Of a stretch of 64,000 nt of DNA, positions 14,355 through 31,647 are shown piece after piece (within the stretch, counting starts at the first letter, position 1; each line of letters begins with the position of its first letter). The DNA comes from Escherichia coli (lineage in GTDB: Bacteria > Pseudomonadota > Gammaproteobacteria > Enterobacterales > Enterobacteriaceae). The DNA lies in the NCBI RefSeq assembly GCF_044324875.1, contig NZ_CP172185.1. One strand, 5' to 3'. Below the pieces are notes generated by a model. The model was given only the letters and a program-made list of their open reading frames with translations. It made no database searches and had not been told where the DNA came from. The translations under genes and the position numbers were made by a program.

Positions 14355-14422
14355 TGTTCCGCACTGCGCGGATATCCTGAAACATGTTCTGTTAATGTTA
14401 CCTGGTTCAGAAGAGATAAACA

Positions 14423-15412
14423 GTGAGCAGCAGGAAAGAGAAAAATACGCCCACGCCGCATGATGCCGCCTTCAGGGCGTTTATGGCCTCAGCAGAGGTG
14501 GCCCGTGATTTTGTTGAACTGCATCTTCCGGCGGAATACCGGCAGTTGTGTGATCTGTCGACGCTGCGGCTGGAGCCCTGTACCTTTGTGGACCAGGATC
14601 TGAAACAGTATGCGTGCGATGCGCTGTTCAGCATGAAGACCGTCAGCGGTGAGGAGGGGTATATTTATTGCCTCGCGGAACACCAGAGTACGGAAAACGC
14701 GTTTATGGCGTTCAGGATGCTCAGATATGCGGTGGCGGCGATGCAGCGTCACTTTGAACAGCACCATGAGCTGCCGCTGGTGATCCCGCTGTTATTCTAC
14801 CACGGTGAGCGGAGCCCGTACCCGTACAGCATGAACTGGCTGGAGTGTTTCAGAAATCCGGAACTTGCTGCTAAAATCTACACCAGACCGTTCCACCTGG
14901 TGGACGTGACGGTACTGGATGACGATGAGATAATGCAACACCGCCGAATGGGGGCACTGACGCTGCTGATGAAACACAGCCGCAGCCGCGACATCATGCT
15001 GCAGATGGACAGGCTGGTTCAGCTGATACAGACTTCACTGAATGAAGAGCTGGCGAAGGCTCTGTTCCACTATCTGCTGAACGGCAGTGAACATGTGACG
15101 GTAAGGTTTTTGCAGACGCTGGCGGAGCGGCTGCCACAGCATGAGGGCAACATAATGACACTGGCTGAACAACTGAAGCAGGAAGGGGAAGTCAAGGGAT
15201 TTGAGCGCGGTATTGCCCAGGGTATGGAGCGCGGTAAGCTAGAAGGCAGAATGGAAGGCAGAATGGAAGGCCGTGCCGAAGGGCGACTCGAAGGACAACT
15301 GGAAGGCAAACTGGAAACGGCGCGTAATATGTTGGCTGAAGGAATGGGGCTTCAGACCATCATGAAAATCACGGGATTGAGTGAAGAACAGCTGAAAAAA
15401 ATCAGCCACTGA
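14423..15412 (+). CDS. Rpn-family recombination-promoting nuclease / putative transposase (YhgA-like, PD-(D/E)xK)
   Basis: 329-aa ORF; N-terminal PHDAAFRAFMASAEVARDF pattern and C-terminal EG(R/K) low-complexity repeats typical of E. coli Rpn proteins. Confidence 0.7.
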   Translation: MSSRKEKNTPTPHDAAFRAFMASAEVARDFVELHLPAEYRQLCDLSTLRLEPCTFVDQDLKQYACDALFSMKTVSGEEGYIYCLAEHQSTENAFMAFRMLRYAVAAMQRHFEQHHELPLVIPLLFYHGERSPYPYSMNWLECFRNPELAAKIYTRPFHLVDVTVLDDDEIMQHRRMGALTLLMKHSRSRDIMLQMDRLVQLIQTSLNEELAKALFHYLLNGSEHVTVRFLQTLAERLPQHEGNIMTLAEQLKQEGEVKGFERGIAQGMERGKLEGRMEGRMEGRAEGRLEGQLEGKLETARNMLAEGMGLQTIMKITGLSEEQLKKISH

Positions 15413-15885
15413 AGCATTGAGGCGTGATGTATAGCACGCCTCGTTCTGTCTGACAGTATTTTGTTTCCTGTGTATTTGGTCGTTTCAGGTCAACCTTTGT
15501 CGGGAGCCTGGCGTTGGTACCTGCTGAGGAAAGAGGGAACTGGACGCAGAGTGACAGTCTGCGAATTGCAGGAAGAGGATGCGAAAGTGTTCGCTTCTTC
15601 CATTGTGTCCCTGATTTAAATTCGGATACTCAAATCTGAAGCGGTGACTCGTATACGTGTGAGTCACCGGGACTACCGCTTGAGTGATGAAAAATAGTCG
15701 TGTTAACGCAAAGCTGAAGTGACACATCTTATTTCAGCGAATGCGTTTGACCGCCTTACTATACACTTTTGAGCATTCTCTTTTCCTGACGGAAACCACG
15801 AAGACGACAATCTTCTCGTCTATAACCTGATATACAAGGCAAAAAACCGTCAAGAGCAGGAGCAGGCGGTCCGCCAGACAGTCCA

Positions 15886-16206
15886 TTGCATAAGGCTATC
15901 AGCTATATCCTGAAACGACCTGATGAGCTGTGCCGTTTTCTGGATGATGGCTCTGTGCCACCGGACAACAATATCTGCGAACGAGCCATCCGCCCGGTCA
16001 CGCTGGGGCGAAAGGCATGGTTATTCGCAGGCTCGCTGATGGCCGGCAAACGCGCGGCACAGATAATGAGTCTTCTGGAAACAGCAAAGCGTAATGGTCT
16101 GGAGCCACATGCCTGGCTGACGGACGTACTGACGCGCCTGCCGGAGTGGCCTGAGGACCGACTGGCTGAGCTGCTGCCTCTTGAGGGATTTACCTTCTCC
16201 GGGTGA
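15886..16206 (+). pseudogene. IS66-family transposase TnpC, C-terminal fragment
   Basis: 106 aa with DNNICERAIRPVTLGRKAWLFAGS, parallel to the C-terminus of the intact TnpC at 23005-24543; no N-terminal part or companion orfs. Confidence 0.75.
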
Positions 16207-16324
16207 CACAACACCTGCCGTCAGGTCTTTGCACACCGGGCCATGGCCTGCTGTCGGGCGTTGAGCGCCTGACAGCGGGTTATTGAGAAAGTCAGTCACC
16301 ATGCGCCTGGCTGACAGTCAGGAC

Positions 16325-16545
16325 CTGCACGTCAGCGCCTCCCTTACCCTGGTCAGGACTTCACTGCCTGCCACAAACTCCCGTGTCAGTACTTCGCGGC
16401 CTGACGCGCTCACCCTACTCAGTCCTTCAGAGCCCGCCTCCGGTACCTGGCAAGGCAGACGCCGGGGCGCAATAAAATAAATCAACCATCGCAGGGCGGC
16501 GATCATTCGCAACAACCGCTGATGACGAGCCCAGAAACGTGTCAA
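16325..16545. repeat. copy A of a ~220-bp diverged non-coding repeat (second copy at 22395-22625)
   Basis: about 75 percent identity to 22395-22625, shared core AATAAAATAAATCA-CCATCGCAGGGCG-CGATCATTCGCA and paired internal direct repeats CCCTGGTCAGGACTTCAC / CCGTGTCAGTACTTCGC. Confidence 0.6.
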
Positions 16546-16554
16546 GACGATTTC

Positions 16555-16689
16555 ACCGGAACCGTTTACCCCAAGCAGAGCGGCAATAGATCCGCCTGGT
16601 ACTGTGAAGGATGCATCGCGCAGTGCTTTCTGCCCGTTTCGCCAGGTGACAGTAACGCCATTAACGACAATACCCGCAGATTGCATCAT
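16555..16689 (-). pseudogene. sitB: sitB 5' fragment (ABC transporter ATPase, truncated inside the Walker A motif)
   Basis: first ~45 codons resemble SitB-type ATPase (SFTVPGGSIAALLGVNGSG) then diverge into repeat A; start overlaps sitA stop. Confidence 0.6.
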
Positions 16690-17603
16690 TACTTCTCCCT
16701 TTTCCCGGCTTTAATTCCCTGCACCAGCGTACTGGTAGTAACCTTCAGAAGGTCGATATACGTAGGTACCGGGCCGTTTTCTGTGCTCAGGGAATCGACA
16801 TAGAGCACACCGCCGTAGTGTGCGCCGGTTTCACGCGCAACCTGACGCGCTGGTTTATCGGAAACCGTACTCTCACTAAATACCGCTGGGATATTATTTT
16901 TCTTCACTATATCAACCACTTTACGTACCTGCTGGGGTGTTCCTTGTTGATCGGCATTTATCGGCCACAGATAAAGCTCTTTTAGCCCCAAATCGCGTGC
17001 GAGATAAGAAAAAGCCCCTTCACTGGTGACCATCCATCTTTTATTCTCAGGGAGTTCAGCAATCTGCTTACGCAGGGGGGCAAGGGTTTGGGTAATCTTG
17101 GCTTTATAAGTATCGGCATTACGTTGGTATGTTTTTGCATTTGCCGGATCGTATTTTATCAACGCATCGCGAATATTATCGACGTAAATCAAAGCATTAT
17201 CTGGCGACATCCAGGCATGAGGGTTAGGTTTTCCCTCGTAGGGGCCTTCGGTGATCCCTACTGGCGTCACACCCGAAGAGACAATCACTTCTGGAACACC
17301 ACTGAGATGCTGGTAAAAGCGCTGGAACCACAATTCCAGATTCATACCGTTGGCGAGAATCAGTTGTGCCCCCTGCGCACGTTTAATATCGCCAGGGGTA
17401 GGCTGATACTCATGAATTTCTGCACCGGGCCTGGTTATGGATGAGACTTCTGCAGCATCTCCAGCCACGTTTTTGGCCATATCTGCGATGATGGTAAATG
17501 TTGTAATGACCTTGAATTTTTCAGTTGCACTCGCCTGAAATGCTATCGAGCAGGTGAGGGCGAGGCACCCCAGGAGCATGGTTACTTTTTTTATTGAGTG
17601 CAT
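16689..17603 (-). CDS. sitA: SitA, periplasmic Mn/Fe-binding protein of the SitABCD ABC transporter
   Basis: 304-aa ORF with signal peptide; recognised as the SitA/cluster A-I metal-binding protein family. Confidence 0.8.
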   Translation of the reverse strand: MHSIKKVTMLLGCLALTCSIAFQASATEKFKVITTFTIIADMAKNVAGDAAEVSSITRPGAEIHEYQPTPGDIKRAQGAQLILANGMNLELWFQRFYQHLSGVPEVIVSSGVTPVGITEGPYEGKPNPHAWMSPDNALIYVDNIRDALIKYDPANAKTYQRNADTYKAKITQTLAPLRKQIAELPENKRWMVTSEGAFSYLARDLGLKELYLWPINADQQGTPQQVRKVVDIVKKNNIPAVFSESTVSDKPARQVARETGAHYGGVLYVDSLSTENGPVPTYIDLLKVTTSTLVQGIKAGKREK

Positions 17604-17635
17604 AATTCAGTACCTATAGTGAGTAAAATTAGAAC

Positions 17636-17657
17636 AAACATAGCAACGGCTATGTTT
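17636..17657 (-). promoter_or_regulatory. MntR operator (palindrome AAACATAGC-AACG-GCTATGTTT) in the sitA promoter
   Basis: perfect inverted repeat matching the E. coli MntR box, 33 bp upstream of the sitA start. Confidence 0.7.
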
Positions 17658-17682
17658 TATAGCATAAGCTATACACAATGCA

Positions 17683-17697
17683 AATGATTATCATTAG
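17683..17697 (-). promoter_or_regulatory. Fur box-like site (AATGATTATCATTAG) in the sitA promoter
   Basis: 13 of 15 match to the core of the Fur consensus GATAATGATAATCATTATC. Confidence 0.55.
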
Positions 17698-18237
17698 TAA
17701 TTCAGACCCCAACACAGGCATTAGGTTGTTTCCTGCTGGCGATGTGGTATTGAGGAAAAGCGTAGGACAGATATCAGGCTTTGAAAGTAAGTGTTAAGTT
17801 AAGCGAACGCCGTATTGACGCTTATTTATTGGTGAGTACTACGTTCCATGGCAGGAGTTCGTCATATAGACGATTATCTCAGTAAACATATTTATCCCTC
17901 CTGATAATTGTCTTTAATGATATGTTTTTATTCTTTTTGAAATAACTCACAAAATGATAATCAGGTCTACACAGAAATGTGATACACATCTTGTTTTTTA
18001 AAGAAGAAAAATGACATTGCTCACATATTTATCTGGGTTTATATAAATAATGTAATTATTGTGAAAAGTAACTATTTGATTTTTAAGTATATATTCGCAA
18101 ATCAAATTAGTTAATATTTCAGAGAAATTAGAAGATCTTCACATTTATAAAATCAGAATGTGATTTTTATCTCGGTTTATTACTTGATGATAAAGTATTA
18201 AAGGTTTTAAATATTATGTTTGTATAGGAGTACAATT

Positions 18238-18696
18238 TTGGATATCTATTTTGACGACAGTTTGCTATCCCTGAATCAGAATTTTACATCTCCAGAAGAT
18301 GGTATTCGTTATGCAGGTGAATTATTGCAGAAATCAGGAGCCTGTACATCTGATTATATTGAAGAAATGATCCACACATATCACGAATTTGGCCCAGTTA
18401 TTGTTCTGGATAATGGTGTGGCGATGCCTCATGCTCGACCAGAAAAGGGAGGATTAAAAAGTGCTTTCTCTGTGGTAGTAACAGAATTTCCAGTGATATT
18501 TCATCATCAGGAGTTTGATCCGGTGAATGTCATTATTGCCATCTGTGCCATAGACTCAGATACACATATTCATCTTATTCAGATTGTAGCTGATTTAATT
18601 GAAAGAAATATTGCGTCTTATGTGAGAAATAGTAGCAAAGAGCAGGTCTTATATTTTATCCAGAAATCAATAGAGAGGACGTTATGCTTAAAATAA
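18238..18696 (+). CDS. PTS EIIA component, ascorbate/mannitol-type (PTS_EIIA_2)
   Basis: active-site region GVAMPHARPEKG; start uncertain (TTG 18220 or TTG 18238 after RBS TAGGAG). Confidence 0.65.
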   Translation: MDIYFDDSLLSLNQNFTSPEDGIRYAGELLQKSGACTSDYIEEMIHTYHEFGPVIVLDNGVAMPHARPEKGGLKSAFSVVVTEFPVIFHHQEFDPVNVIIAICAIDSDTHIHLIQIVADLIERNIASYVRNSSKEQVLYFIQKSIERTLCLK

Positions 18697-18965
18697 GAAC
18701 TGTATGCGGCAATGGGATTGGTAGTTCATTAATGGCAGCGAATAATGTTAAAAAAATTTGTGAGGAAATGGGCATAAAAGCAGATGTAGCCTCGGTCGAT
18801 TTTGCTAACGCAGTTGGGGAAAATGCTGATCTGTATATCACTGTTAAAGAGTTTGCCTCACAATTTCCATCTCAGTATAGAGTCGCTGTGATCCGTAGTT
18901 ATGTACATAAGGTGAAAATTGAAGAGGATGTTAAAGATACTTTACAGAAACTGAGTCAATTCTGA
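18684..18965 (+). CDS. PTS EIIB component (UlaB/SgaB-like)
   Basis: 93-aa ORF with N-terminal CGNGIGSS phospho-cysteine motif. Confidence 0.7.
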   Translation: MLKIRTVCGNGIGSSLMAANNVKKICEEMGIKADVASVDFANAVGENADLYITVKEFASQFPSQYRVAVIRSYVHKVKIEEDVKDTLQKLSQF

Positions 18966-18985
18966 TATTTTACAGGGGGTATATT

Positions 18986-20380
18986 ATGACATCAATTCTT
19001 TTAACTCTTACAGAAATCTTCAGTCAACCAGCCTTCCTTATGGGGATTATTTCTTTGGCTGGATTACTGTCATTACGTTCGCCACTTAATAAATTACTAA
19101 CTGGTACACTGAAACCAATCCTCGGTTATTTAATGTTGAGTGCAGGTGCCGGTGTGATTGTTTCAAATTTAAATCCTCTGGGTGGTATTATCGAAGCTGG
19201 ATTTAATATAAGAGGCGTTATACCTAATAATGAAGCGATCGTATCAGTAGCTCAGAAATTACTTGGTGTGGAAACCATGAGCATTTTATTGCTCGGATTT
19301 ATTTTTAATCTTGTCATTGCACGATTTACTAAATATAAGTACATATTTTTAACAGGACATCATTCATTCTTTTTAGCGTGCTTATTTTCTGCGGTATTAC
19401 AGGCTGCGCATTTTAGTAACGGGGAATTGGTCATTATAGGCGGTTTCCTGCTGGGAGCATGGTCTGCGATTTCTCCAGCAATCGGGCAACGTTATACCAG
19501 ACGAGTGACTGAGGATGGAGGGATTGCCATGGGACACTTTGGCTCCTTGGGTTATTATCTGTCAGCCTGGATTGCAGCGAAAGTTGGTAAAGCAGACACA
19601 TCATTTGCTGATACTGAAATTTCTGAAAAATGGGGCTTCCTGCGTGATACCACAGTGACTACCGGTATTGTAATGGTTGTTATTTATCTGGTATGCAGTA
19701 TTGTTGCTGGTTCCGCATATATCAGTACAATTACCGAGCAGAATCTGGTGACCTTCTCCATCCTGTCCGGTCTACAGTTTGCGGTAGGAGTTGCTATTGT
19801 CTACAGTGGTGTGCGTTTAATCCTAGGCGATCTTGTCCCCGCATTTCAGGGGATTAGCCAGAAACTGATACCGAACTCAATTCCGGCTGTTGACTGTGCG
19901 GTATTCTTCACTTTCAGTCCTACTGCAGTGGTGATTGGCTTTATCTGTTCTTTTTTAGGTGGCCTTGTTGGTATGTTGATACTGGGGGGGGTTGGTATGG
20001 CGCTGATTATCCCTGGCATGGTTCCGCACTTCTTCTGTGGTGGTACCTCTGGTGTATTTGCAGATAAGCTTGGAGGTAAAAAAGGTTGTATTATTGCGTC
20101 GTTTATTGGCGGTATTTTCCTCGCTTTTTTACCCGCAATGTTGTTACCTGCACTGGGAAATCTCGGTTTTGAAAACAGTACCTTTGCAGACTTTGACTTC
20201 GCTGTATGGGGGATTGTTATCGGTGAGGCCTTTACTCACTTCGGACAAATTGCTGTTTATATTATTTGTGCTGTTATGAGCCTGGTATTACTGATCCCGT
20301 TTGCTTTTAAATCCATAAAAGTTGTAGGAAATACAATGAGCTATGAAGAGTTAACGAAAAAAGATTATGCTGACAAGTAA
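18986..20380 (+). CDS. PTS EIIC permease (UlaA/SgaT family)
   Basis: 464-aa polytopic membrane protein directly after EIIB; RBS AGGGGG. Confidence 0.7.
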   Translation: MTSILLTLTEIFSQPAFLMGIISLAGLLSLRSPLNKLLTGTLKPILGYLMLSAGAGVIVSNLNPLGGIIEAGFNIRGVIPNNEAIVSVAQKLLGVETMSILLLGFIFNLVIARFTKYKYIFLTGHHSFFLACLFSAVLQAAHFSNGELVIIGGFLLGAWSAISPAIGQRYTRRVTEDGGIAMGHFGSLGYYLSAWIAAKVGKADTSFADTEISEKWGFLRDTTVTTGIVMVVIYLVCSIVAGSAYISTITEQNLVTFSILSGLQFAVGVAIVYSGVRLILGDLVPAFQGISQKLIPNSIPAVDCAVFFTFSPTAVVIGFICSFLGGLVGMLILGGVGMALIIPGMVPHFFCGGTSGVFADKLGGKKGCIIASFIGGIFLAFLPAMLLPALGNLGFENSTFADFDFAVWGIVIGEAFTHFGQIAVYIICAVMSLVLLIPFAFKSIKVVGNTMSYEELTKKDYADK

Positions 20381-20414
20381 ACACAATATTAGTGTAAAGT
20401 ATTAAGGAGTTGTT

Positions 20415-21386
20415 ATGGCTATAATTACTATAGGACTATCCTGTTTTGACCAGTTTTTTTATATAAACAGATGGCCAAAAGAGAATACTAAAAACTTTTC
20501 CTGTGATTTTATTGAAAGTGGTGGCGGCCCCTGTGCCAATGCAGCATGGTTGCTGGGTTTATGGGGCGAGTGTGTGTACTTCTCAGGCCATCTACAAAAC
20601 GATATCTATGGACAGAAAATTATAGATGAGTTTCATGATGTTGGAGTAAATACAGATTATGTGATTTTCAATAATCAAATGCTTACACCGCTGGCATCTA
20701 TACTAGTGAATCAATTAAATGGTTCAAGAACGATTATAACACGCAAACAGAATTATCCCCCACGAATGACATTTGAAGAAAAGCTGAAAATAGATGAATT
20801 GATTACACATCTGACATATGATGATAAAAAGGAAGTTATTACAATATTAATTGACGGCCATGAACCTGAGTTGAGTGAATATATTATACAGCGAATGCCA
20901 GATGCCCGAGTCGTGATGGACGCAGGCTCTCTTCGGGAGAGTAATTTAAATCTGGCTAAATACACAGACTATCTGGTTGCCAGTGAAAACTTTGCCTGTG
21001 AACTATCTGGAATTGAAAAATTTACATCTGATATACAGTTAAACGAAGCTTTAACAGAACTTAATAAATTGTCCCGAGGTCAGCCCTTTATTACTCTTGG
21101 TGAGAGAGGATGTGCATATCTGAAGAATGGAATACCTACAATATCACCAGCTTTTATTTGTAATGCAATCGATACAACAGGTGCCGGTGATGTTTTTCAT
21201 GGTGCTTTTACGTATGGTGTTCATTACAACTGGCATATTGATAATATTATTTTGTTTGCCAGTCTGGCTGCAGCTATTTCTGTTGAAAAAAAAGGTGTCC
21301 GCGAATCCATACCTGATTTAGCTGATGTCCATAATGCTATAAATCAATATGAAAGAAGTAGAGAAAAATACTTTACTTCATTTTAA
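20415..21386 (+). CDS. PfkB-family carbohydrate kinase
   Basis: 323-aa ORF with DTTGAGDVFHGAF motif. Confidence 0.7.
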   Translation: MAIITIGLSCFDQFFYINRWPKENTKNFSCDFIESGGGPCANAAWLLGLWGECVYFSGHLQNDIYGQKIIDEFHDVGVNTDYVIFNNQMLTPLASILVNQLNGSRTIITRKQNYPPRMTFEEKLKIDELITHLTYDDKKEVITILIDGHEPELSEYIIQRMPDARVVMDAGSLRESNLNLAKYTDYLVASENFACELSGIEKFTSDIQLNEALTELNKLSRGQPFITLGERGCAYLKNGIPTISPAFICNAIDTTGAGDVFHGAFTYGVHYNWHIDNIILFASLAAAISVEKKGVRESIPDLADVHNAINQYERSREKYFTSF

Positions 21387-21409
21387 GTTATACACAAGCA
21401 AGAGGAAAT

Positions 21410-22276
21410 ATGATGTTAGTTTCTATAGAGAATATGCTTAATCGTGCCCTTGTACATCAGTACGCAGTTGGTCAGTTTAATATCAATAACCTGGAGTGGA
21501 CAGGTACTGTGTTAAATGTTGCACAAAAATTACGTTCTCCGGTTATTTTAGGCGTCTCCGGTGGCACTATAAAACATATGCTTGGGCTGAAATGTATTCA
21601 CGATATTGTTGTTAACGCAATGGAATTCCTGGAAATAGATGTGCCGGTGGCTTTACATCTTGATCACGGTCAGTCTTATGAGGCTTGTGAGGCGGCAATT
21701 AAAGCAGGTTTCAGCTCAGTAATGTTTGACGGTTCACATATGCCTTTTGCCGAAAATCTGGCAATAACAAAACGTCTGGTGAAGTATGCCCATCGTCGGG
21801 GAGTATCTGTGGAAGCAGAGCTAGGCACGATTGCAGGAAGTGAAGATGGCATTGTTAATTCCCGAGTGATTTATGCAGATCCTACAGAATGTAAGCAACT
21901 TGTTGAGGAGACAGGAGTGGATTGTCTGGCTGCAGCACTTGGTTCCACACATGGATTATATAAAGGAAAAGCAAAACTCGGTTTTGCGGAAATGGAACAT
22001 ATATCACAGTTGGTAAAAGTACCCCTGGTACTTCATGGGGGCACAGGTATTTCAGATACGGATATGAAAAAAGCTATTTCACTTGGCACAGCAAAAATCA
22101 ATGTTAATACCGAAAATATGTATGCGTGGTGTTTGTCAGTGAAAGAACAGTTTGAACATAAGGGGGAACATGATATTAATGATCCCCGAAAAGTTATTAC
22201 GAAAGGATTGCAGCCAGTTGCAGAACGAGTGGCAGAACGAATGAGCCTGTTCGGCTCTGTTGGACAGTCCCTCTGA
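21410..22276 (+). CDS. class II ketose-bisphosphate aldolase (GatY/KbaY/Fba family)
   Basis: 288-aa ORF with N-terminal QYAVGQFNINNLE and metal-ligand region LHLDHG. Confidence 0.7.
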   Translation: MMLVSIENMLNRALVHQYAVGQFNINNLEWTGTVLNVAQKLRSPVILGVSGGTIKHMLGLKCIHDIVVNAMEFLEIDVPVALHLDHGQSYEACEAAIKAGFSSVMFDGSHMPFAENLAITKRLVKYAHRRGVSVEAELGTIAGSEDGIVNSRVIYADPTECKQLVEETGVDCLAAALGSTHGLYKGKAKLGFAEMEHISQLVKVPLVLHGGTGISDTDMKKAISLGTAKINVNTENMYAWCLSVKEQFEHKGEHDINDPRKVITKGLQPVAERVAERMSLFGSVGQSL

Positions 22277-22394
22277 ACTGTTACAGTTTCCTGCAGGTCG
22301 TCATTCATTCAGGCAATCTGCAGGATTGAACTATATTAGACATCCAGGAATAATTCCCTTCCACAGGGGGCACGGAGGATTGAAATTGCACTGA

Positions 22395-22625
22395 ATGGGG
22401 AATTTGTTAACGTCGCCCTTACCATGGTCAGGATTTCACGCCCTGTTACAAACACTCGTGTCAGTATTTCTTGGCCCTATTCAGTACTCCTCACTACCTG
22501 CCAACGACACCGCTAGGAAAAACGCCCGCGTGTAATAAAATAAATCAGCCATCGCAGGGCGCCGATCATTCGCATGCATCGCTGATGACGCGCCCAAACA
22601 AGCGTCAAGATGAGTTAACCTGAAC
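22395..22625. repeat. copy B of the ~220-bp diverged repeat
   Basis: aligned by eye to 16325-16545; lies between the convergent aldolase gene and the lsrK remnant. Confidence 0.6.
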
Positions 22626-22631
22626 AATTCG

Positions 22632-22968
22632 TTATAAGCCCGGTGCCTTCCACAAAGAAGTTGTCAACCCGTGATCGACCAAGCTCAACTGTTCCTGATA
22701 TACAGCCCGCCATTTTTCGAGCAATTCCTGATAAAGCTCATGTTTTCTTTTGTCCGGAACATGCTACCTTTCCCAGCTCACCAGGCATTCTCCCGTTTCG
22801 TCCATAGATGAGTAGATACCTGCCCCTACACCAGCAGCAATCGCACAGCCCAGTGCCGTTGCCTCTTTGACTACAGGAACATTAACTGGTAGCCCTGACA
22901 CATCAGCCAGAATCTGGCTCCAGAGTTCTCCTTTTGCACCACCTCCCGCAAATACCAGAGATGAAGGG
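22632..22968 (-). pseudogene. lsrK: lsrK (autoinducer-2 kinase, FGGY family) 3' end, distal piece, separated from the rest by the IS66 insertion
   Basis: reverse-strand translation ...[47 protein letters not shown]...[13 protein letters not shown]. Confidence 0.65.
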
Positions 22969-23004
22969 TAAGCGTACAGCGAGGGCCGTATTGACGGGGA
23001 TGTG

Positions 23005-24543
23005 TTATTCAGCTGGCAGTGCTATGCGCCACGGAAGCAGTTCGCTGACCCGGTTGACCGGCCAGTCTGCTATGACGCCAAGCACATGGCGAAGGTAGCT
23101 TTCTGGATCCACGTCATTCAGTTTGCACGTCCCTATCAGGCTGTACAGTAGCGCTCCCCGCTCACCACCATGGCCAGAGCCGAAGAACAGGAAGTTTTTA
23201 CGACCCAGACTTACCGCCCGCAGGGCATTTTCAGCGATGTTGTTGTCGATTTCCACCCAGCCATCGTTCGCATAGTACGTCAGTGCCGGCCACTGGTTAA
23301 GTGCGTACGCGAACGCCTTCGCCAACTCTGAGTGTCGCGACAGGGTCTTCATCTTTTCACGCAACCAGCTTTCCAGGGATTTCAACAGCGGTTTCGTTTT
23401 TCGCTGACGTTCAGCAAGCCGCTGCTCTGCCGGCATTCCCCTTATATCCGCCTCTATGGCGTACAACTGACCGATCTGCTCCAGGGCTTCTTCCGTCAGT
23501 GCTGACGGGATGCGGACGTGCACATCGTGGATCTTTCGGCGGGCATGAGCCCAGCAGGCAGCTTCCGTTATCCCACCATTGCGATACAGCTCGTTGAACC
23601 CGGCGTACGCATCCGCTTGCAGCACACCGCTGAAGCAAGCAAGATGAGTCTGCGGATGGATGCCTTTTCTGTCCGGGCTGTAAGCGAACCACACTGCAGG
23701 TGCCAACGCTGACCCGGCATTGCGGTCATCACGAACATACGCCCACAACCGCCCGGTCTTCGTCTTCTTATTACCCGGCATCAGTACCTGGACCGGGGTA
23801 TCATCGGCATGGAGTTTGCCGTCAGTCATGACATAGCCATGAAGCGCCTCTTCCAGCGGAGACAGCAGCCGGCAGCATGCATCCACCCAGCCCGACAGCA
23901 GTGAACGGCTCAGCTCCACACCTTGCCGGCCGTATATTTCTGACTGGCGATACAGCGGGGTGTGCTCTGCATACTTCGAGGTCAGCACGCGGGCCAGCAG
24001 CCCCGGTCCGGCGATACCCCGCTCGATGGGCCGCGAAGGTGCAGGTGCCTGCACGATGGCATCGCACTGAGTACAGGCATGTTTTTCCCGTACCGTCCGG
24101 ATAACCCGGAAGGCGCTACGCATCAACTCCAGCTGTTCGGCGGTATCCTCGCCCAGATAGCTCAGTGAACCGCCGCAGTTCGGGCAGCACGGCGCCGCAG
24201 GCAACAGTCGCTTTTCGTCACGGGGTAGTGATTCAGGGAACGGCTTACGGATGCGGGTCTGACGCAACGGACGCTGTACTGCCGGGTCATACACCCTACC
24301 AGTCAGCGTATCGCTCTCTTTCTGAAGCCGGTTCAGATCGGCTTCCATTTGTGCGATACGGCGGGAGACTTTTTCGGAACGACTGCCGAAGTTCATCCGG
24401 CGGAGTTTATCCAGCTGCGCCTGCAGATGGTCTATTTCGCGCTCCCGGTTGCTCAGCTTTTCCTGCAGGGCGTGGATCAGCGCTTCCTGTTCGGCCAGGC
24501 GCTGTTTCAGCAGGAAGATGTCGTCAGAAGAGATGTCGTTCAT
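23005..24543 (-). CDS. IS66-family transposase TnpC
   Basis: 512-aa ORF with zinc-finger-like CCPNCGG and C-terminal [12 protein letters not shown] segment. Confidence 0.85.
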
Positions 24544-24592
24544 AAGCCCGTATTTTACCGGGCTTATTCTGTGACAACCAGGATAAAGAGAT

Positions 24593-24940
24593 TTACAGCA
24601 TGGTCAGGGAGGTCAGCAGCCGCTTAGGCTGTCGCCAGTCGATACCTTCCAGCAGCATCGCCAGCTGCGCCTGTGTAAGGAACACTTTGCCATCACGGGC
24701 TGACGGCCAGGCGAAGCGCCCACGCTCCAGCCGTTTGGTCAGGAGGCACAGTCCGTCACCGGTGGACCACAGCAGTTTAACCTGACTGCCGCTGCGGCCC
24801 CGGAAAATGAAAACATGGCCGGACATGGGATCGTCTTTCAGCGCCGTCTGTACTTTCGCAGCCAGGCCGTTGAAGCCATTTCTCATATCGGTGATACCGG
24901 CAACCAGCCAAATTTTGGTCCCGGAAGGTAAAGGGATCAT
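24593..24940 (-). CDS. IS66 Orf2 (TnpB)
   Basis: 115-aa [33 protein letters not shown]... typical IS66 Orf2. Confidence 0.85.
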
Positions 24941-25338
24941 CGCTTCAGTTCCTGTATCAGCAGAGTCAGGAGCTTTTCGCTGACATTGCCATTGAAGCGG
25001 AGCGTCCCGTGCCGGAACGTTACCTCACAGCTGATACTGAGGGTTTCCGGGTCCTCTGCGAGCGATTCTGGCTGTTCGGCAGCTGCATCGAGAGTCACAG
25101 GAAGTAGCTGGGGGCTCTCTGAAGAAGGTAATAGCAGCTTTCCCTCGCGCCATTGTTGTCGCCATTTGAACAACAGATTGGCGTTAATGCCATTTTCAAG
25201 AGCAAGTTTTGAGATGGATATCCCGGGTTCACAGGAGGCAGCAACGAGCTGCTGTTTAAATTCGGGAGGATAATTAGGGCAGCCTTTTCGCCTGCCGGGA
25301 GTCACATTTTTCTGCATATCTGACACTTTGGTTCCCAC
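24937..25338 (-). CDS. IS66 Orf1 (TnpA)
   Basis: 133-aa ORF overlapping Orf2 start by 4 bp. Confidence 0.8.
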   Translation of the reverse strand: MGTKVSDMQKNVTPGRRKGCPNYPPEFKQQLVAASCEPGISISKLALENGINANLLFKWRQQWREGKLLLPSSESPQLLPVTLDAAAEQPESLAEDPETLSISCEVTFRHGTLRFNGNVSEKLLTLLIQELKR

Positions 25339-25409
25339 TACTTATTTGGTGGACACCACTTTGTCTAATTCGTCAGATTCTGACCAGACGGTTCAGGCTG
25401 TACGCTTAC

Positions 25410-25666
25410 GATGAAGGATGGATCCCTGTAAAATCAGCAATCTGCGACAAATTACATGTTGAAACAATGGCTGCATTCTCTTCCAAGGCGCGAAACAAAG
25501 TTGCCTTATTACATTTTTCCGGATCGATCGACAGGTTTAGAAATGAAGGAGCCGCGTGGTACCAACTTTTGAAACGCATCCTGTCAGAGAATATCGGCAT
25601 CACTCCCCATGCTCCTGCTGGTACACGGGAAGCCATTTCCTCCAGTAGTGTATAAGTATCGACTCC
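25410..25666 (-). pseudogene. lsrK: lsrK internal piece (5'-truncated); continues across the IS66 insertion
   Basis: [42 protein letters not shown]... matches the C-terminal third of LsrK; no N-terminal two-thirds present. Confidence 0.6.
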
Positions 25667-25670
25667 CAGA

Positions 25671-25714
25671 CTGCAAAATCGCATCGTGTTCGATCGCCGA
25701 TTCGCATCGCATCC
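25671..25714. mobile_element. solo terminal fragment of an IS21-family element
   Basis: CTGCAAAATCGCATCGTGTTCGATCGCCGATTCGCATC resembles the multi-repeat terminus of the IS21-family element at 33380-33431. Confidence 0.5.
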
Positions 25715-25821
25715 CCTTACCCACAAGTTGAAATAGTAGTATTGTATTGATAAATCATAAATTTTTATGGAGGGGTTATGGATAACTGGATTACTCAGGA
25801 ATTCAAATCGCTGGATACAGG

Positions 25822-26240
25822 GTAAGCGGCTCGCCAGAACCGTATTGATATTTACTGAGAGGTCAGATCAACTTTCCAGGGCAACAGATCGCGTACCCGG
25901 TTTGCCGGCCAGTCCTGGATATGCTCAATAACGTAACGCAGCCATTTTTCTGGCTCCACATTGTTCAGACGGCATGTGCCGATCAGTGAGTACAACACCG
26001 CCGCATGTTCGCCACCGCTGTCGGAACCCGCGAAGAGCCAGTTTTTCCGGCCTACGGCCACTCCCCGTAAGGCGTTCTCTGCGATGTTGTTGTCGATTTC
26101 CGCCTGACCATTATGCAGTACACGTTCAGCGCATCCCACTGTTTCGGCAGGCATGCGAACGCTTTTACTGTATCCGGGTGACGCGACAGTGTTTTCATCT
26201 GTTGCTGTATCCAGTCATACTACGCCAGCATCATTGGTAG
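25822..26240 (-). mobile_element. IS66-family remnant: terminal repeat plus frameshifted tnpC 3' fragment
   Basis: GTAAGCGGCTCGCC terminus at 25822; ORF 25852-26154 with [23 protein letters not shown]; upstream homology continues in another frame. Confidence 0.65.
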
Positions 26241-26306
26241 CACCTGGGCTTTTTTTGCCGCAGGCGCTGGTTCGCAGACTACTAAAATAATACGCGGTTT
26301 TTCATT

Positions 26307-27539
26307 TTACGGACGGGCAGCCAGAAGACACAGTTGAAATGCCACATTATACGATTCCTCAAAGGATTTTAGAGGTAGAAACTCAAATATGGAGTGAAAA
26401 TTATGTGCGCCAGTAAAAAAATTAGGCGTCAAAATTCCTCTGGCTGACAGAACTGCACCATCAGTTCCACCACGCATTGGTATCGGTTTTGGTGTAATTC
26501 CCAGCATATTCATGGACTCAAAGAGTAGATCTACAGCACGTCTGTCTTTGTTTAAAGCATTACTAATATTGCTGTAGATATCAGTGATCGTGAACTCAAC
26601 CCTGGCTGTCGGATATCGGGAAGATATTTTATGTGCAACAGCAGCAATCTGTTGTTTTCTGCGAGTAAAACTGGATTGATCAAAATCACGTATACTTGCC
26701 TGTAACACAGCATTACTTTGTCCGGCATTCATACCATTGAACCAGATATAACCTTCACGACCAGCGGTATTCTCCGGTGTTTCAAGGCGATCAAATTCAT
26801 TTATGTAATCACAGGCCATCAGTAATGGATTAACTAATACATTTTTTGCAGACATCGGATGTGCCGTTACACCAGTAAAACGGATCTCTGCAGATGCAGC
26901 GTTAAAGTTTTCATAAACAATCTCTCCTGACTCGCAACAGTCAATTGTCCAGGCAAAGTCAACAGAAAAACGTTGTAAATCAAGAGACTTAGCTCCACGC
27001 AAGCCTGTTTCCTCATCAGGGACAAATGCAACCACAATATCACCATGCTGATGTTCTGAGGTCAGATTCTCCAGCATAGTCATCACTACCGAAACAGCGG
27101 CTTTATTATCAGCCCCTAGTACACTTGTTCCGTCGCTGAAAATAATGTCTTCCCCCCGATATTTCAGAATTTCGGGATGCTCTTTGACCCGCAGCCAGAT
27201 ATCTTTTTCTGCATTGAGACACAAATCTTCACCTGTAAATTTCAAAATTTGTGGATGAATATCCGGAGATAAACCAACATCTACTGTATCAATATGAGTA
27301 ATGAAACCAATTCGAGGCGCACCCGGAATATTACCTTTTTTCACCGCGGTGACCGTTGCATGCTCATCAACAATAATATCGTCCATATCCAGCAACGCCA
27401 GTTCATCTGCAAGTGTCCGGGCCATCTCATACTGTCCTTGTGTGGACGGAAGGGATGCTGAATTTGGGTCACTCTGGCTACTGATTGAAAGGTAGCGAAA
27501 GAAACGTTGGATTAATTGACTGCTTAATGGGGAGTACAT
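26307..27539 (-). CDS. peptidase T-like tripeptidase (M20B family)
   Basis: motifs GADNKAAV, PDEETGLRGA, RGGTDGA parallel to PepT. Confidence 0.7.
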   Translation of the reverse strand: MYSPLSSQLIQRFFRYLSISSQSDPNSASLPSTQGQYEMARTLADELALLDMDDIIVDEHATVTAVKKGNIPGAPRIGFITHIDTVDVGLSPDIHPQILKFTGEDLCLNAEKDIWLRVKEHPEILKYRGEDIIFSDGTSVLGADNKAAVSVVMTMLENLTSEHQHGDIVVAFVPDEETGLRGAKSLDLQRFSVDFAWTIDCCESGEIVYENFNAASAEIRFTGVTAHPMSAKNVLVNPLLMACDYINEFDRLETPENTAGREGYIWFNGMNAGQSNAVLQASIRDFDQSSFTRRKQQIAAVAHKISSRYPTARVEFTITDIYSNISNALNKDRRAVDLLFESMNMLGITPKPIPMRGGTDGAVLSARGILTPNFFTGAHNFHSIFEFLPLKSFEESYNVAFQLCLLAARP

Positions 27540-27657
27540 AACTTTTCCTTCTTTTTTTGTGTTATGAGGTGAATGCAATACGCATTTAATGTTATTTATT
27601 AATCTGTAACCGATGCGGATTCATCACTCCATATTGTCAAAGAAAACAGGAAAAGTC

Positions 27658-29250
27658 ATGGTAAGAAGATTAGCGACTATTGCACCGTTACTGGTTGCGT
27701 TGGGTGTAAGCTCAACTGTTTATGCAAAGACACTGGTTTACTGCTCTGAAGGCTCACCTGAGAGTTTTAATCCTCAGCTTTATACTTCGGGGACCAGTGT
27801 TGATGCAAGTGCTGTTCCGGTGTATAACCGACTGGTTGATTTTAAGGTGGGCACTACTGTGCTGGTTCCCAGCCTGGCTGAACGATGGGAAATCAGTGGT
27901 GACGGGAAAGCATATACTTTTTATCTGCGTAAAGGCGTTAAATTTCACAGTAATAAATACTTTACTCCAACGCGAGAGTTTAATGCTGATGATGTTATTT
28001 TTTCATTTATGCGCCAGAAGGATCCTGGTCATCCATATCACCAGGTTTCTGGTGGAACGTATTCTAATTTTGAAAGTCTGGAATTCAGTTCACTCATAAC
28101 CAGTATCGACAGAGTTGATGATCATACAGTTCGCTTTAATCTTTCACATCCGGAGGCTCCCTTTATTGCTGATTTAGCCTGGTATTTTGCTTCTGTTTTA
28201 TCCGCTGAATATGCTGATGCTATGCTTAAAGCCGGAACACCTGAACGGGTTGATATGAATCCAATTGGGACAGGGCCATATCAACTCAAACAATATCAGA
28301 AAGATTCGCGTATTTTATTTACGGCTTTTGATGATTACTGGGAGGGGAAAGCAAAACTGGAACGCATTGTTTTCAGTATCACACCAGATTCCTCAGTGCG
28401 TCTGGCTAAACTGGAGAAAAATGAGTGTCAGGTGATGCCGTTTCCTAATCCATCAGATCTTTCCAGAATCAAAAAAAATCCGGCTCTTAAATTGATGAGT
28501 AAAGCCGGACTTAATACAGGTTTTCTTGCTTTCAATACGCAAAAAGCTCCTCTGGATAATGTAAAAGTTCGTCAGGCACTGGCAACAGCAATTAATAAAA
28601 ATGCCATTATAGATGCTGTATTTCAGGGGACTGGTAGTGCTGCTAAAAATCTGCTGCCACCAGGAGTATGGAGTGCAGACAGTGAATTGAAAGATTATGA
28701 ATATGATCCAGAAAAAGCCAGATCATTGCTAAAAGAAGCTGGTTTTGATAATGGAATGACTATTGATCTTTGGGCGATGCCAGTTCAACGCCCTTATAAC
28801 CCAAACGCTAAACGAATGGCCGAAATGATTCAGGCTGACTGGGCAAAAGTGGGAGTAAAAACAAACATTATCACTTTTGAATGGGGGGAATATCTTAATC
28901 GTATAAAGAACGGAGAGCATCAGGCTGCGTTGATGGGATGGACAACCGCAACAGGTGATCCTGATAATTTTTTTGGTCCACTCTTTACCTGCACTTCTGC
29001 TAACGGTGGTTCTAATTCCGCGAAGTGGTGCTACAAACCTTTCGATGAAATTATTTCTCAGGCTAAAGTAATAACTGATCAGGAAAAACGAGCAGTGCTC
29101 TATAAAAAAGCACAACAGATGATGCATGAACAAATACCAGCGGTGATGATTGCACATTCCACCATTTTTGAACCAATACGCAGTGAAGTCACAGGTTATG
29201 AAATAGATCCATTTGGTAAACATATTTTTTATCAGGTTGATATAAAATAA
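27658..29250 (+). CDS. ABC transporter periplasmic substrate-binding protein, family 5 (DppA/OppA-like peptide-binding)
   Basis: signal peptide plus SBP_bac_5-like length and composition; no permease or ATPase genes adjacent. Confidence 0.65.
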   Translation: MVRRLATIAPLLVALGVSSTVYAKTLVYCSEGSPESFNPQLYTSGTSVDASAVPVYNRLVDFKVGTTVLVPSLAERWEISGDGKAYTFYLRKGVKFHSNKYFTPTREFNADDVIFSFMRQKDPGHPYHQVSGGTYSNFESLEFSSLITSIDRVDDHTVRFNLSHPEAPFIADLAWYFASVLSAEYADAMLKAGTPERVDMNPIGTGPYQLKQYQKDSRILFTAFDDYWEGKAKLERIVFSITPDSSVRLAKLEKNECQVMPFPNPSDLSRIKKNPALKLMSKAGLNTGFLAFNTQKAPLDNVKVRQALATAINKNAIIDAVFQGTGSAAKNLLPPGVWSADSELKDYEYDPEKARSLLKEAGFDNGMTIDLWAMPVQRPYNPNAKRMAEMIQADWAKVGVKTNIITFEWGEYLNRIKNGEHQAALMGWTTATGDPDNFFGPLFTCTSANGGSNSAKWCYKPFDEIISQAKVITDQEKRAVLYKKAQQMMHEQIPAVMIAHSTIFEPIRSEVTGYEIDPFGKHIFYQVDIK

Positions 29251-30349
29251 CAGGTGTAAGCTCCGTCTGTGACGTCTGGTGATAGTTGTCCAGTCTGGTA
29301 ACAATAGCGTCCATCTATACAGATGGACGCGAATGATGAATTTTCAGACAACAAGATATTGATGGTTTTCGTTTTTATCTGCCCGACGCATTACGTCTAA
29401 TATTCGAAGAACAATTATCTGTCTGGTTAATCGCTCATCAGTCAGGGCTAAGTCATTTCACCATCACGATTTCTTTTAACGATTACCCGAATGAGCAAAG
29501 TGAGGATGATGCCATGACGCAGGTCAGAGCGACCAGCACCGCGACAATTAATAAAACAGGAAGGCTGCGCGTTTCAGACAGTGATGTCAACATAAACTAT
29601 CAGTAACGTTAACTGCATCAGAAGCACAAGTATGGATTTTGCCATTGTGCAGAACGACTTGTCCATGGGAAATAATAAATTTAATAAAAAAAGAAAGATA
29701 TGGTTGCAAATAGTATAATATCCCGGGCAACGATCCTGATTTTCTCAATACATGTTTTCCTCACGTATTTGTTCTTCAAAGAGCAATCAGCATCTGTTAC
29801 TGAATGGTTGTTATAAGCATTAAAAGAATAACGGGAAGTCGGTGACGTGGGGATATGTCGCGTGTTGAATTATACAAAGGGCCGACATCTTCATGGTGTC
29901 GGCCAGTCATAAGTGCCAGATATTAACCGTCAGTTACAGGGGGTAACCGCAGGAAACAGGCTACGCTCCGGGTAACGGGTTATCAATAGTTACTTATTTG
30001 CTTAATTTAATTAATTTTGTTCTGCGTCATTGCGTTTCCTTACTGGTATAAATAATGATCGATTGCTTTTCGCATGAGCATCAGAATTTGTCGTAATTTG
30101 AGGTACTGTCGCTGCACATGCAGGAATATGGTTCTGTCAGCGACAGATTGCCGTTGCTGACCGGAATGTTCAGGCTGGATGGTGATATTACAACTGATAT
30201 TGCTGTGCTGATGGCAGAATGGTAAACGTTAAGTGCGCGTTCCAGGCAATGAAGGCAAACACGTCATGACAGCAACGCAAAACAAACCAAGAACGCGCAG
30301 TATTTTTTATCCCGAATGAAAGCGATTGTCCATATCCGGTAATAAATAT

Positions 30350-30601
30350 TCAGCAGTATGTAAAGTGCGGTTTGCCCGGCTCTGGTGGAAGGGGCTCCAG
30401 ATACACATCATCAACAAACACACACGGGAAGTTATCCACCGGGCAGCCTGCACGGTCAGCCATATCCCGCAGCGTCACACTGTGCTTCGCGACATCAATA
30501 AACACAACATCCGGTTCCATTTCATCGGGGATTCGCGTTGCGTGATGCATGATGCGATGGACTGAAGGGCAGTGCCGGTAACCAAAAACACGTATACGCA
30601 T
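30350..30601 (-). CDS. glutaredoxin-like small protein (putative)
   Basis: 83-aa ORF MRIRVFGYRHCPS... with a glutaredoxin-like beta1-CPxx layout; weak. Confidence 0.3.
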   Translation of the reverse strand: MRIRVFGYRHCPSVHRIMHHATRIPDEMEPDVVFIDVAKHSVTLRDMADRAGCPVDNFPCVFVDDVYLEPLPPEPGKPHFTYC

Positions 30602-30891
30602 GATGTACCTCCTGGTTGCAGGGTGACTGTATCATCAGACCTTATCATGCGTTTAAAAAATGTCCGGCAACTCACACTTTTCGGTAAGGAGGTGGCTATT
30701 ACTGCAAATGATGATGTCTCGGTTTTTATTTTTTATTCAATATTTTCATCCTGTTATTGTTATTATGTTTGTCCATACCCTGTGTGGTTCCCTGCGTATT
30801 CCGCTCTATTCGATCACGGATTGGCATCGAAGTCCGATCAGCGATTCGCATCCATTCGATCAACCGGGAACTTAACTTTTTCTACCGCTTT

Positions 30892-31647
30892 TTAACGCGT
30901 TTTTTCGCTGCTTTCCACTACCGGGGGATTTTTCCTCAGTGACTCTCCCTGAAGGACCACTCGGTGTGAGTTATGTACCAGTCTGTCCAGGATGGCATCT
31001 GCTGTTGTTGGGTTCTCCATCAGACCATGCCATTTATCTACCGGGAACTGGCTTACCACTATCGTGCTGCTTTGTCCGTAACGATCCTCTATGAGCTCCA
31101 GAAGGTCATTACACTGGGCGTTACTTAACTGTTCCAGCCCCAGATCGTCCAGGATTAGAACCTGTATTTTTTGCAACTGTTTCAGATATTTCAGCCAGCT
31201 GCCATCAACACGTCCCTGAGCCAGTTGTTCCAGTAATCGCCCGGTTCTACAGTACCGGACGCTGTGTTTCTGTCGACATGCCTGTTCGCCCAGCGCATTG
31301 GCTATCCAGCTCTTGCCACATCCTGTCGGACCGGTTATCAGCAGGTTTTTCCTGTGGGTTATGTAGTGGCCGTTCAGCAGTTCTCTCATCTGTTCAGCCC
31401 GCAGACCTCTTGAGGCCGGATAGCGCAGCCCTTCCGGTGTTGCCTGGTATTTCAGGCCGGCATTTTTTCTCAACCGTGCCACACGGCTGTTTTCCCTGCT
31501 CAGAAGCTCGTCATCAACCAGCAGCGTCAGCCTTTCCTCGAACGACAGTTCGTCGTAGGTCTGAGGCGTTTCCCGCTGCCGTATCAGGCTCCCGGCCATC
31601 GCCGGGAGTTTCAGTTGGGTCAGTTTGTTTAACAGGTTATCACTCAT
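30892..31647 (-). CDS. IS21-family helper ATPase IstB
   Basis: Walker A GPTGCGKS, Walker B ILDDLG; start placed at MSDNLL inside the longer listed ORF. Confidence 0.8.
   Translation of the reverse strand: MSDNLLNKLTQLKLPAMAGSLIRQRETPQTYDELSFEERLTLLVDDELLSRENSRVARLRKNAGLKYQATPEGLRYPASRGLRAEQMRELLNGHYITHRKNLLITGPTGCGKSWIANALGEQACRQKHSVRYCRTGRLLEQLAQGRVDGSWLKYLKQLQKIQVLILDDLGLEQLSNAQCNDLLELIEDRYGQSSTIVVSQFPVDKWHGLMENPTTADAILDRLVHNSHRVVLQGESLRKNPPVVESSEKTR

Follow-up and report, generated by a model that had tools for sequence, protein, structure and literature searches.

The region that starts at position 22632 of the 64-kb stretch of E. coli DNA analysed here (the window) is very probably a non-functional scar that a series of mobile-element events produced in an accessory lsr locus, itself part of an E. 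coli-type genomic island. Within this scar, the lsrK fragments are a pseudogene remnant without function, and an ISEc8 element is the sole active unit of the interval. The gene was truncated exactly at the terminus of an IS4/Tn5-family insertion sequence (IS), of which 150 bp are left, and this relic is in turn broken by a fragment of a second IS66-family element.

The lsrK remnant

Codons 336-530 of LsrK, the autoinducer-2 (AI-2) kinase, are found on the minus strand at 22632-22967 and 25410-25671, as follows:

22632..22967, minus strand: 3′ piece of the lsrK remnant, approximately codons 419-530 and the stop codon; its right-hand 8 nt are a target-site copy
22764..22766, minus strand: in-frame nonsense codon within the lsrK remnant, E487, GAG to TAG
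25410..25671, minus strand: middle piece of the lsrK remnant, 2 nt of codon 335 and codons 336-422

Searches by tblastn recovered LsrK residues 419-530 from the 3′ piece and residues 336-422 from the middle piece, the latter with 100% amino-acid identity. Once ISEc8 and one repeat copy were taken out, one continuous frame ran across both pieces, confirming the first-pass annotation of a minus-strand lsrK divided by an IS66-family element. The joined pieces matched the NCBIfam autoinducer-2 kinase equivalog NF008187 with 349 bits (E = 3.4e-104; profile positions 321-521 of 521), whereas the next best FGGY model, xylulokinase, reached 64 bits only, and the E. coli LsrK structure 5YA0 was matched with E = 3.4e-114. 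These results uphold the proposal that the fragments belong to LsrK and to no other FGGY kinase. The NF008187 score lies below the full-length cut-off of 528 because only 37% of the protein is present.

Of the limits first proposed for the region, the start at 22632 is exact, being the end of the stop codon, but the end at 25714 is too far to the right, since lsrK homology ends at 25671. In a codon-by-codon comparison with the lsrK of E. coli AR_0085, the remnant differed by four synonymous changes and the TAG at E487, which is also present in the loci L007 and L009. A complete ORF with both FGGY_N and FGGY_C is absent: codons 1-335 are gone, ISEc8 occupies approximately codons 419-421 and TAG stands at codon 487. 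No lsr genes besides the lsrK remnant were found in the 64-kb window by tblastn, and the reported absence of the lsrK 5′ two-thirds, lsrR and lsrACDBFG therefore stands.

An intact ISEc8 copy within lsrK

The two lsrK pieces are separated by a complete element with a target-site duplication:

22960..22967: target-site duplication GATGAAGG, copy 1, 8 bp
22968..25409, minus strand: ISEc8, IS66 family, intact, 2442 bp, 100% identity to plasmid copies
22968-22989 and 25388-25409: ISEc8 inverted repeats, 22 nt, beginning GTAAGCG
23005-24543, minus strand: ISEc8 tnpC (NCBIfam IS66 transposase model)
24593-24940, minus strand: ISEc8 tnpB (NCBIfam IS66 TnpB model)
24937-25338 (or 25317), minus strand: ISEc8 tnpA (NCBIfam IS66 TnpA model)
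25410..25417: target-site duplication GATGAAGG, copy 2, 8 bp

The element was 100% identical over all 2442 bp to copies annotated as ISEc8 on E. coli plasmids, and it has the features of IS66/ISEc8, namely intact tnpA, tnpB and tnpC, terminal inverted repeats and an 8-bp duplication. The intact IS66-family element recognised earlier is thus ISEc8, with three intact ORFs. The duplication reported with it is genuine: GATGAAGG lies on both flanks, and the empty site in the AR_0085 lsrK has it only once, at L001 14401-14408, which is the 8-nt overlap of the two BLAST segments.

An island-borne origin of the remnant

At the nucleotide level, core E. coli lsrK matched the remnant at only 81.6% identity, against 99.2% for a second lsrK that 7 complete E. 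coli genomes carry beside the core gene. This second gene belongs to an accessory lsr locus that is rare and lies on a genomic island. In AR_0085 and many other assemblies the locus is intact: genes for PTS IIA/IIB/IIC, a PfkB kinase, a class II aldolase and lsrK-lsrR run one way and lsrACDBFG and an epimerase run the opposite way. The left-hand synteny of the window (PTS-PfkB-aldolase) matches the island locus in AR_0085 and further assemblies. A 5-kb block that includes the lsrK 3′ piece (window 17931-22967) was 99.1% identical to L001 9371-14408 of AR_0085, and the middle piece was 98.5% identical to L001 14401-14662. The linkage of lsrK to lsrR and lsrACDBFG was seen in the uninterrupted locus, 99% identical, that AR_0085 and other assemblies carry. 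By these alignments the remnant comes from this second, island-borne lsr locus, gained by horizontal transfer, and not from the core locus. The literature searched had nothing specific on a second or island-borne lsr locus, and a general paper on lsr decay alone was useful (Brito et al. 2013, PMC3595036).

The lsrK break and the IS4/Tn5-family relic

The remnant departs from intact lsrK exactly after 25671, which places the truncation point at 25671|25672; positions 25672-25714 are already part of the adjoining IS end:

25672..25821, plus strand: IS4/Tn5-family left-end fragment, with terminus TGCAAAATCGCATC..., ribosome-binding site, ATG at 25778 and 14 codons

This fragment contains the left terminus, the promoter region and the first 14 codons of an IS4/Tn5-family transposase gene. 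It was 79% identical to DNA of E. coli 55989 and O104:H4 that comprises the first part of an IS4/Tn5 transposase gene and the region upstream of it. The protein of this homologue matched NCBIfam IS4_FS_Nterm (E = 1.3e-13) and transpos_IS4_3 (E = 4.1e-40), and the IS4/Tn5 assignment is made through this 79%-DNA-identical homologue, as the window itself keeps 14 codons only. By eye, 10/14 residues of these codons match the N-terminus of the homologue. Homology begins at the same nucleotide in three contexts (beside lsrK, beside colicin Ib and in the 55989 island), and the colicin Ib gene is cut exactly at the same IS terminal nucleotide as lsrK. The alignments thus lend good support to the view that the break falls on a true IS terminus and that an IS took part in the truncation; in agreement, the solo IS end described earlier abuts lsrK to the base.

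A motif at 25715-25728, CCTTACCCACAAGT, which we take to be Tn5 outside-end-like, was considered as the real IS tip and rejected, since in the three independent contexts homology extends 43 nt beyond it, to 25672. The window has no further IS4 parts, and the right end of the IS4-like element is absent from the window and from every copy examined. In the plasmid collection, tblastn and blastn gave relics only and no intact reference copy; in a two-ORF copy from E. marmotae, ISEc16 cuts the left end.

Two earlier readings have to be weighed against these data. The remnant had been attributed to the AI-2 uptake locus of the species, and as a leftover of the core lsr locus it would mark a strain without AI-2 import and processing. 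The fragments are indeed true LsrK, and truncated core lsr loci with insertion sequences nearby are common (PMC3595036). However, a core origin disagrees with both the lsrK identities and the left-hand neighbours, which belong to the island locus, and the island lsr proteins resemble those of the Citrobacter amalonaticus group (85-95%) more closely than those of core Escherichia (77-87%). In addition, core and intact island copies coexist in complete genomes, namely the 7 mentioned above. We therefore regard a core origin as very unlikely, and since the decaying locus is an accessory second one, loss of AI-2 uptake by the cell does not follow. The IS end at the break had been called IS21-type. 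Its segment does open with TG and carries repeated TCGCATC motifs; these, we assume, superficially resemble the multiple terminal repeats of IS21-type ends. Yet the 150 bp align, right from base 1, with the beginning of annotated IS4/Tn5-family transposase genes and the DNA preceding it; these are what 25672-25821 pairs with among the matches listed, and no IS21-annotated feature appears under these matches. Given also the fit of the homologous protein to the IS4_FS_Nterm and IS4 transposase models and the shared N-terminal residues, it is exceedingly improbable that lsrK adjoins an IS21-family end.

The ISCro1-like fragment and its pepT border

After 150 bp the IS4/Tn5-family end gives way to an ISCro1-like fragment of the IS66 family, beyond which lies pepT:

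25822..26269, minus strand: ISCro1-like IS66-family right-end fragment, with inverted repeat GTAAGCGGCTCG... and TnpC residues ~388-523, frameshifted
26270..27578, minus strand: pepT (peptidase T-like) and 3′ flank, joined to the truncated ISCro1-like fragment

The ISCro1-like fragment was absent from the first-pass annotation. It was 92.9% identical to the ISCro1 end in AR_0085 and 90-93% identical to plasmid copies. Its terminus at 25822 is common to ISCro1 copies in two other contexts, giving three different flanks in total. TnpC residues ~388-523 were recovered by tblastn with a frameshift, and the fragment matched the NCBIfam IS66 transposase profile at positions 321-386. The element is internally truncated, with an IS66-type terminal repeat and the TnpC C-terminus present. 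The 26269|26270 junction was also found in E. coli ECCNB12-2 (L005), there without an adjoining lsrK or IS4 piece. A 32-bp likeness of the ISCro1 flank here to a flank in pSTEC388_3 is probably due to chance. An Rfam scan of window positions 15000-31000 gave nothing.

Proposed history of the scar

We propose that the left terminus of an IS4/Tn5-family element was first joined to lsrK between codons 335 and 336, at the junction observed here, either by simple insertion or by intramolecular 'adjacent deletion' transposition. An ISCro1-like IS66 element would then have inserted 150 bp inside the IS4 element, at the second observed junction. Reconstructed from junctions only, a later deletion or recombination at the ISCro1-like copy may have taken the rest of both elements, the 335 5′ codons of lsrK, lsrR and lsrACDBFG, and may have fused the remainder to another island module, at a 'truncated ISCro1 / pepT' border that already existed there. 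ISEc8 transposed into the remaining lsrK at approximately codons 419-421, as the 8-bp duplication GATGAAGG shows. The change of GAG to TAG at codon 487 arose at some point along this path.

The 100% identity of ISEc8 to other copies suggests that its insertion was the latest event. Identity to the nearest relative is 79% for the IS4 relic and 93% for the ISCro1 relic, and because of this difference from ISEc8 an order of deletion followed by IS66 insertion is plausible. The first-pass annotation had proposed IS-mediated deletion and then IS66 insertion; the IS at the lsrK break and the IS66 duplication bear out its components, but no intermediate fixes their order, as complete E. coli genomes, GTDB representatives and JGI contigs yielded neither a truncated lsrK free of ISEc8 nor an otherwise intact island lsrK that contains ISEc8.

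This history presupposes that the arrangement is real, and three IS-derived segments within 3.6 kb are a typical spot for repeat-induced mis-joins at IS copies. However, all five junctions recur in two further, independent NCBI assemblies, on contigs 5.36 and 5.49 Mb long, which were 99.95% and 99.88% identical to the window over 12.9 kb with 6 mismatches each, and the target duplication corresponds exactly to the empty site. Because two independent assemblies have all five junctions, the arrangement is not an assembly artefact, an explanation that we regard as barely conceivable. The whole arrangement is in none of 5426 complete E. coli genomes (megablast, window 21000-27500), where IS matches alone ranked, and an exact 31-nt scan for the lsrK′/IS4′ junction gave 0 matches in GTDB species representatives and JGI metagenome contigs. 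A sub-variant of the preferred history is that an IS4-family element to the right of the locus, its left end turned towards lsr, attacked lsrK intramolecularly and, in one step, deleted the lsrK 5′ part, lsrR and lsrACDBFG up to its own end, the ISCro1-like events being later and unrelated to the lsr loss. The lsrK break and the IS terminus coincide to the nucleotide, and the geometry fits, as the missing lsr genes would be on the side now occupied by IS. On the other hand, simple insertion with later loss of the other side yields an identical left junction, and an intact island lsr locus with an IS4-like element on its downstream side was seen in no relative examined. We therefore consider a one-step IS4 deletion possible but rather unlikely.

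Meaning and comparison with known systems

The scar is composed of known elements and is an ordinary mobile-element scar with little significance by itself. Its value is chiefly practical: annotators should mark the fragments as an accessory-lsrK pseudogene, which is no proof of a strain without AI-2 uptake, and the 150 bp beside lsrK as an IS4/Tn5-family relic and not IS21. A second, Citrobacter-like lsr locus may be of interest to researchers of AI-2 signalling. This locus, carried by a genomic island of E. coli, seems to decay separately from one lineage to another, and two routes were seen: the IS4/ISCro1/ISEc8 scar with its nonsense codon in the window, and, in CP023142, replacement of lsrK-lsrC by an IS256-family element. 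A mobile island Lsr system of Citrobacter-like origin might circulate in E. coli beside a PTS-kinase-aldolase cassette and be inactivated independently in different lineages, a suggestion that we make tentatively. If true, the 'labile signal reception' pattern of the core operon would apply also to a copy gained by horizontal transfer, which would be a hint of selection against redundancy in AI-2 uptake.

Decay of the core lsr operon in E. coli and Shigella usually follows the route of IS-flanked truncation: 26/34 pseudogenes were large truncations, with 10 IS occurrences at the flanks (Brito et al. 2013, PMC3595036). The window shows lesions of like classes, i.e. a large truncation with a flanking IS and a premature stop; however, that study concerned the core chromosomal operon, whereas the locus decaying here is an accessory island copy. 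Compared with LsrK of the E. coli/Salmonella lsr regulon (FGGY family; PDB 5YA0), the C-terminal 195 residues kept in the remnant align end to end with E. coli LsrK at ~90% identity, but the window copy keeps 37% of the gene (590/1593 nt), is interrupted and has a nonsense codon. It derives from an island-borne xenologous copy, whose amino-acid identity is 83% with core Escherichia LsrK and 89% with the Citrobacter amalonaticus group. The ISEc8 of the window differs in nothing from known copies of this IS66-family element and is simply another copy at a new site. With the IS4/Tn5 relics in 55989/O104:H4 near the aerobactin region and on colicin Ib plasmids of E. fergusonii and Salmonella, the 150-bp fragment has in common the terminus TGCA[A/T]AAT.., the upstream region and the transposase start, at 70-79% nucleotide identity, making it a divergent member; the relics on the plasmids likewise truncate a gene, colicin Ib, exactly at the element tip.

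The lsrK remnant derives from an accessory lsr locus

The two remnant pieces form a single reading frame once ISEc8 and one 8-bp repeat are taken out:

22632-22967 and 25410-25671, minus strand: lsrK remnant
22764-22766, minus strand: nonsense codon in the remnant, E487 GAG -> TAG

The 195-residue product matched the autoinducer-2 kinase equivalog model NCBIfam NF008187 (E=3.4e-104, profile positions 321-521/521), with xylulokinase the second-best FGGY model at only 64 bits, and aligned over its entire length with the E. coli LsrK C-terminus (PDB 5YA0; E=3.4e-114). The pieces are LsrK (codons 336-530 of 530) and not a different FGGY kinase, in line with the first-pass annotation.

In a search of 5426 complete E. 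coli genomes, the remnant without ISEc8 was 99.2% identical to an lsrK present as a second copy in seven of these, versus only 81.6% to the ordinary core lsrK of most E. coli genomes. The second lsrK of E. coli AR_0085 is part of a complete genomic-island locus (PTS IIA/IIB/IIC, PfkB-type kinase, class II aldolase, lsrK, lsrR, lsrACDBFG, epimerase), the left part of which is 99.1% identical to window 17931-22967; the remnant departs from this lsrK by four synonymous substitutions and a single nonsense change. The island Lsr proteins (AR_0085 locus, 9679-23616) share 85-95% identity with the Citrobacter amalonaticus group versus 77-87% with core Escherichia, and the best species-representative identity for island LsrK is ≤89%. 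The remnant accordingly derives from an accessory lsr locus that was acquired horizontally, and this locus is a xenologue. An exact-protein look-up with the aldolase returned many further assemblies with the island arrangement, their lsr genes mostly intact. Three Citrobacter lsr loci (L017, L021 and L022) lack the adjoining PTS-PfkB-aldolase cassette, which makes the island a mosaic in its own right.

No other lsr gene was found across the 64-kb window, in agreement with the reported absence of lsrR and lsrACDBFG. The window consists wholly of mosaic island and integrative-conjugative-element (ICE) DNA and is therefore uninformative on the core lsr operon of this strain. The earlier description of a deleted AI-2 uptake locus holds for the loss of lsr genes but overstates the functional consequence, because the locus is an accessory copy.

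Other features of the window

The aldolase-lsrK spacer (22417-22626) holds a ∼210-bp relic with 72-76% identity to the beginning of a gene for a sitB-like ABC ATPase (window counterpart, 16341-16562). The relic is also in the intact island (AR_0085 locus, 13857-14066), so it is older than the lsrK events. The sit operon of the window itself is truncated within sitB. Positions 44000-64000 are 96-97% identical to an SPI-7/PAPI-1-type ICE of avian and human E. coli (ParA, ParB, DnaB-PI, STY4528-family protein, topoisomerase III), and about 35000-40100 matches annotated leoA and leoB (dynamin-like GTPases, ETEC LeoABC system).

15886-16206, plus strand: IS66-family transposase C-terminal fragment, adjoining the sitB cut
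16318-16689, minus strand: sitB'
16689-17603, minus strand: sitA
35984-36652, 36607-38373 and 38345-40078: three consecutive large ORFs under the leoA/leoB matches
43088-44311, minus strand: integrase-like ORF

ISEc8 interrupts the remnant

22968-25409: ISEc8, 2442 bp
22960-22967 and 25410-25417: GATGAAGG, 8-bp repeat immediately outside both ISEc8 ends

Along its entire length the interrupting element shows 100% identity to ISEc8-annotated copies on E. coli plasmids. TnpA, TnpB and the 512-aa TnpC are all intact, each with an IS66 model match, and the ends are 22-nt inverted repeats beginning GTAAGCG. Uninterrupted AR_0085 lsrK has GATGAAGG once, and the window segments overlap on just those 8 nt (14401-14408 of that locus). 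Because this empty site holds a single copy, the repeat is a real target-site duplication and no coincidence, bearing out the annotation of an intact IS66-family element with an 8-bp duplication.

lsrK is cut at the tip of a probable IS4/Tn5-family element

The window follows intact lsrK up to ...CGACTCCCAGAC (25671), 43 nt left of the previously annotated remnant end, and diverges completely beyond.

25672-25821: IS4/Tn5-family left-end fragment, 150 bp (start and upstream region of the transposase gene)
from 25822: ISCro1-like IS66-type terminal repeat, GTAAGCGGCTCG...
after the terminal repeat, minus strand: TnpC C-terminal part, ∼136 codons, 93% identical to ISCro1, with a frameshift

The 150-bp fragment is 79% identical to the starts and upstream regions of IS4/Tn5-family-annotated transposase genes in E. 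coli 55989, O104:H4 and others, and 70% identical to E. fergusonii and Salmonella plasmids, where alignment begins at its first base. The 55989 homologue matches NCBIfam IS4_FS_Nterm and an IS4 transposase model; the fragment retains the ribosome-binding site, an ATG (25778) and 14 codons (corresponding 55989 residues, MENWVIQELKSLDI). No IS21-related feature was among the matches listed. The solo end, first read as IS21-type, is instead probably IS4/Tn5-type, judging by transposase-gene homology.

Homology among the copies starts at one nucleotide (TGCAAAAT...) in three unrelated contexts. The E. fergusonii plasmid neighbour is colicin Ib, whose match to the solved structure of colicin Ib ends precisely one base short of the IS tip. 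This common start and the colicin Ib cut place the true tip of a transposable element at 25672, and lsrK was cut precisely there, so the proposed adjacency of break and solo insertion-sequence end is exact.

On pEF03 (E. fergusonii; 2066-2446 of the locus) and similar Salmonella plasmids, the colicin Ib gene is truncated exactly at the IS4-like tip; the pEF03 ORF annotated 'colicin-like pore-forming protein' begins within the IS end, 12 codons in, which means that the element provides its start codon. All copies of this end carry TCGCATC three or four times within the terminal 45-70 bp, which may be a transposase-binding repeat, and the 55989 end (about 3471-3536 of its locus) has an extra ∼23-bp internal duplication of the TCGCATC-bearing unit.

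The ISCro1-like fragment ends internally at 26269, joined there to the pepT 3′ flank. E. coli ECCNB12-2 has the same junction, with the fragment's other side cut by an IS3 element and neither lsrK nor the IS4 piece present, which makes the truncated ISCro1/pepT border a pre-existing module edge. Just outside the ISCro1-like end, 32 bp (25790-25821) bear a loose resemblance (∼70%) to the sequence flanking a complete ISCro1 on the unrelated plasmid pSTEC388_3 (about 3000-3032 of the locus), which could be chance or target preference.

Inheritance and proposed history of the scar

All five junctions recur in GCA_045610205.1 and GCA_974490495.1, two independent NCBI assemblies whose contigs here measure 5.36 and 5.49 Mb. 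Over 12.9 kb they match the window at 99.95% and 99.88% identity, with 6 mismatches each, and both also carry the E487 nonsense codon. The shared junctions rule out an assembly artefact and show a scar inherited within a lineage.

From the observed junctions we infer the following order and mechanism; no intermediates fixing the order were found. An IS4/Tn5-family left tip would have joined lsrK at codon 335/336, by insertion or else by intramolecular adjacent deletion. An ISCro1-like element would then have entered the IS4-type element, 150 bp inside, before deletion or recombination involving ISCro1-like copies removed the remainder, lsrK codons 1-335, lsrR and lsrACDBFG included, and joined what was left to the pepT module. 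ISEc8 would have entered the remaining lsrK fragment last, since it is intact and 100% identical to other copies, whereas the IS4 and ISCro1 relics share 79% and 93% identity with the closest relatives of each.

In CP023142.1 (GCA_002278115.2; 7004-9135 of the locus), the same island has lost lsrK, lsrR, lsrA, lsrC and the sitB-like relic, their place taken by an IS256-family (Transposase_mut) element, while lsrD, lsrB, lsrF, lsrG and the epimerase are kept. With this different loss, the accessory locus has decayed on at least two independent occasions.

Comparison with known lsr decay

All components of the scar are of known kinds, and it is an ordinary mobile-element scar. No paper on the island-borne lsr locus itself turned up in a non-exhaustive literature search. 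Brito et al. (PMC3595036) showed at least eight inactivations of the core lsr operon in E. coli and Shigella, mostly large truncations, with insertion sequences at the flanks of decaying operons. The decay described here is that process at work in an accessory copy.
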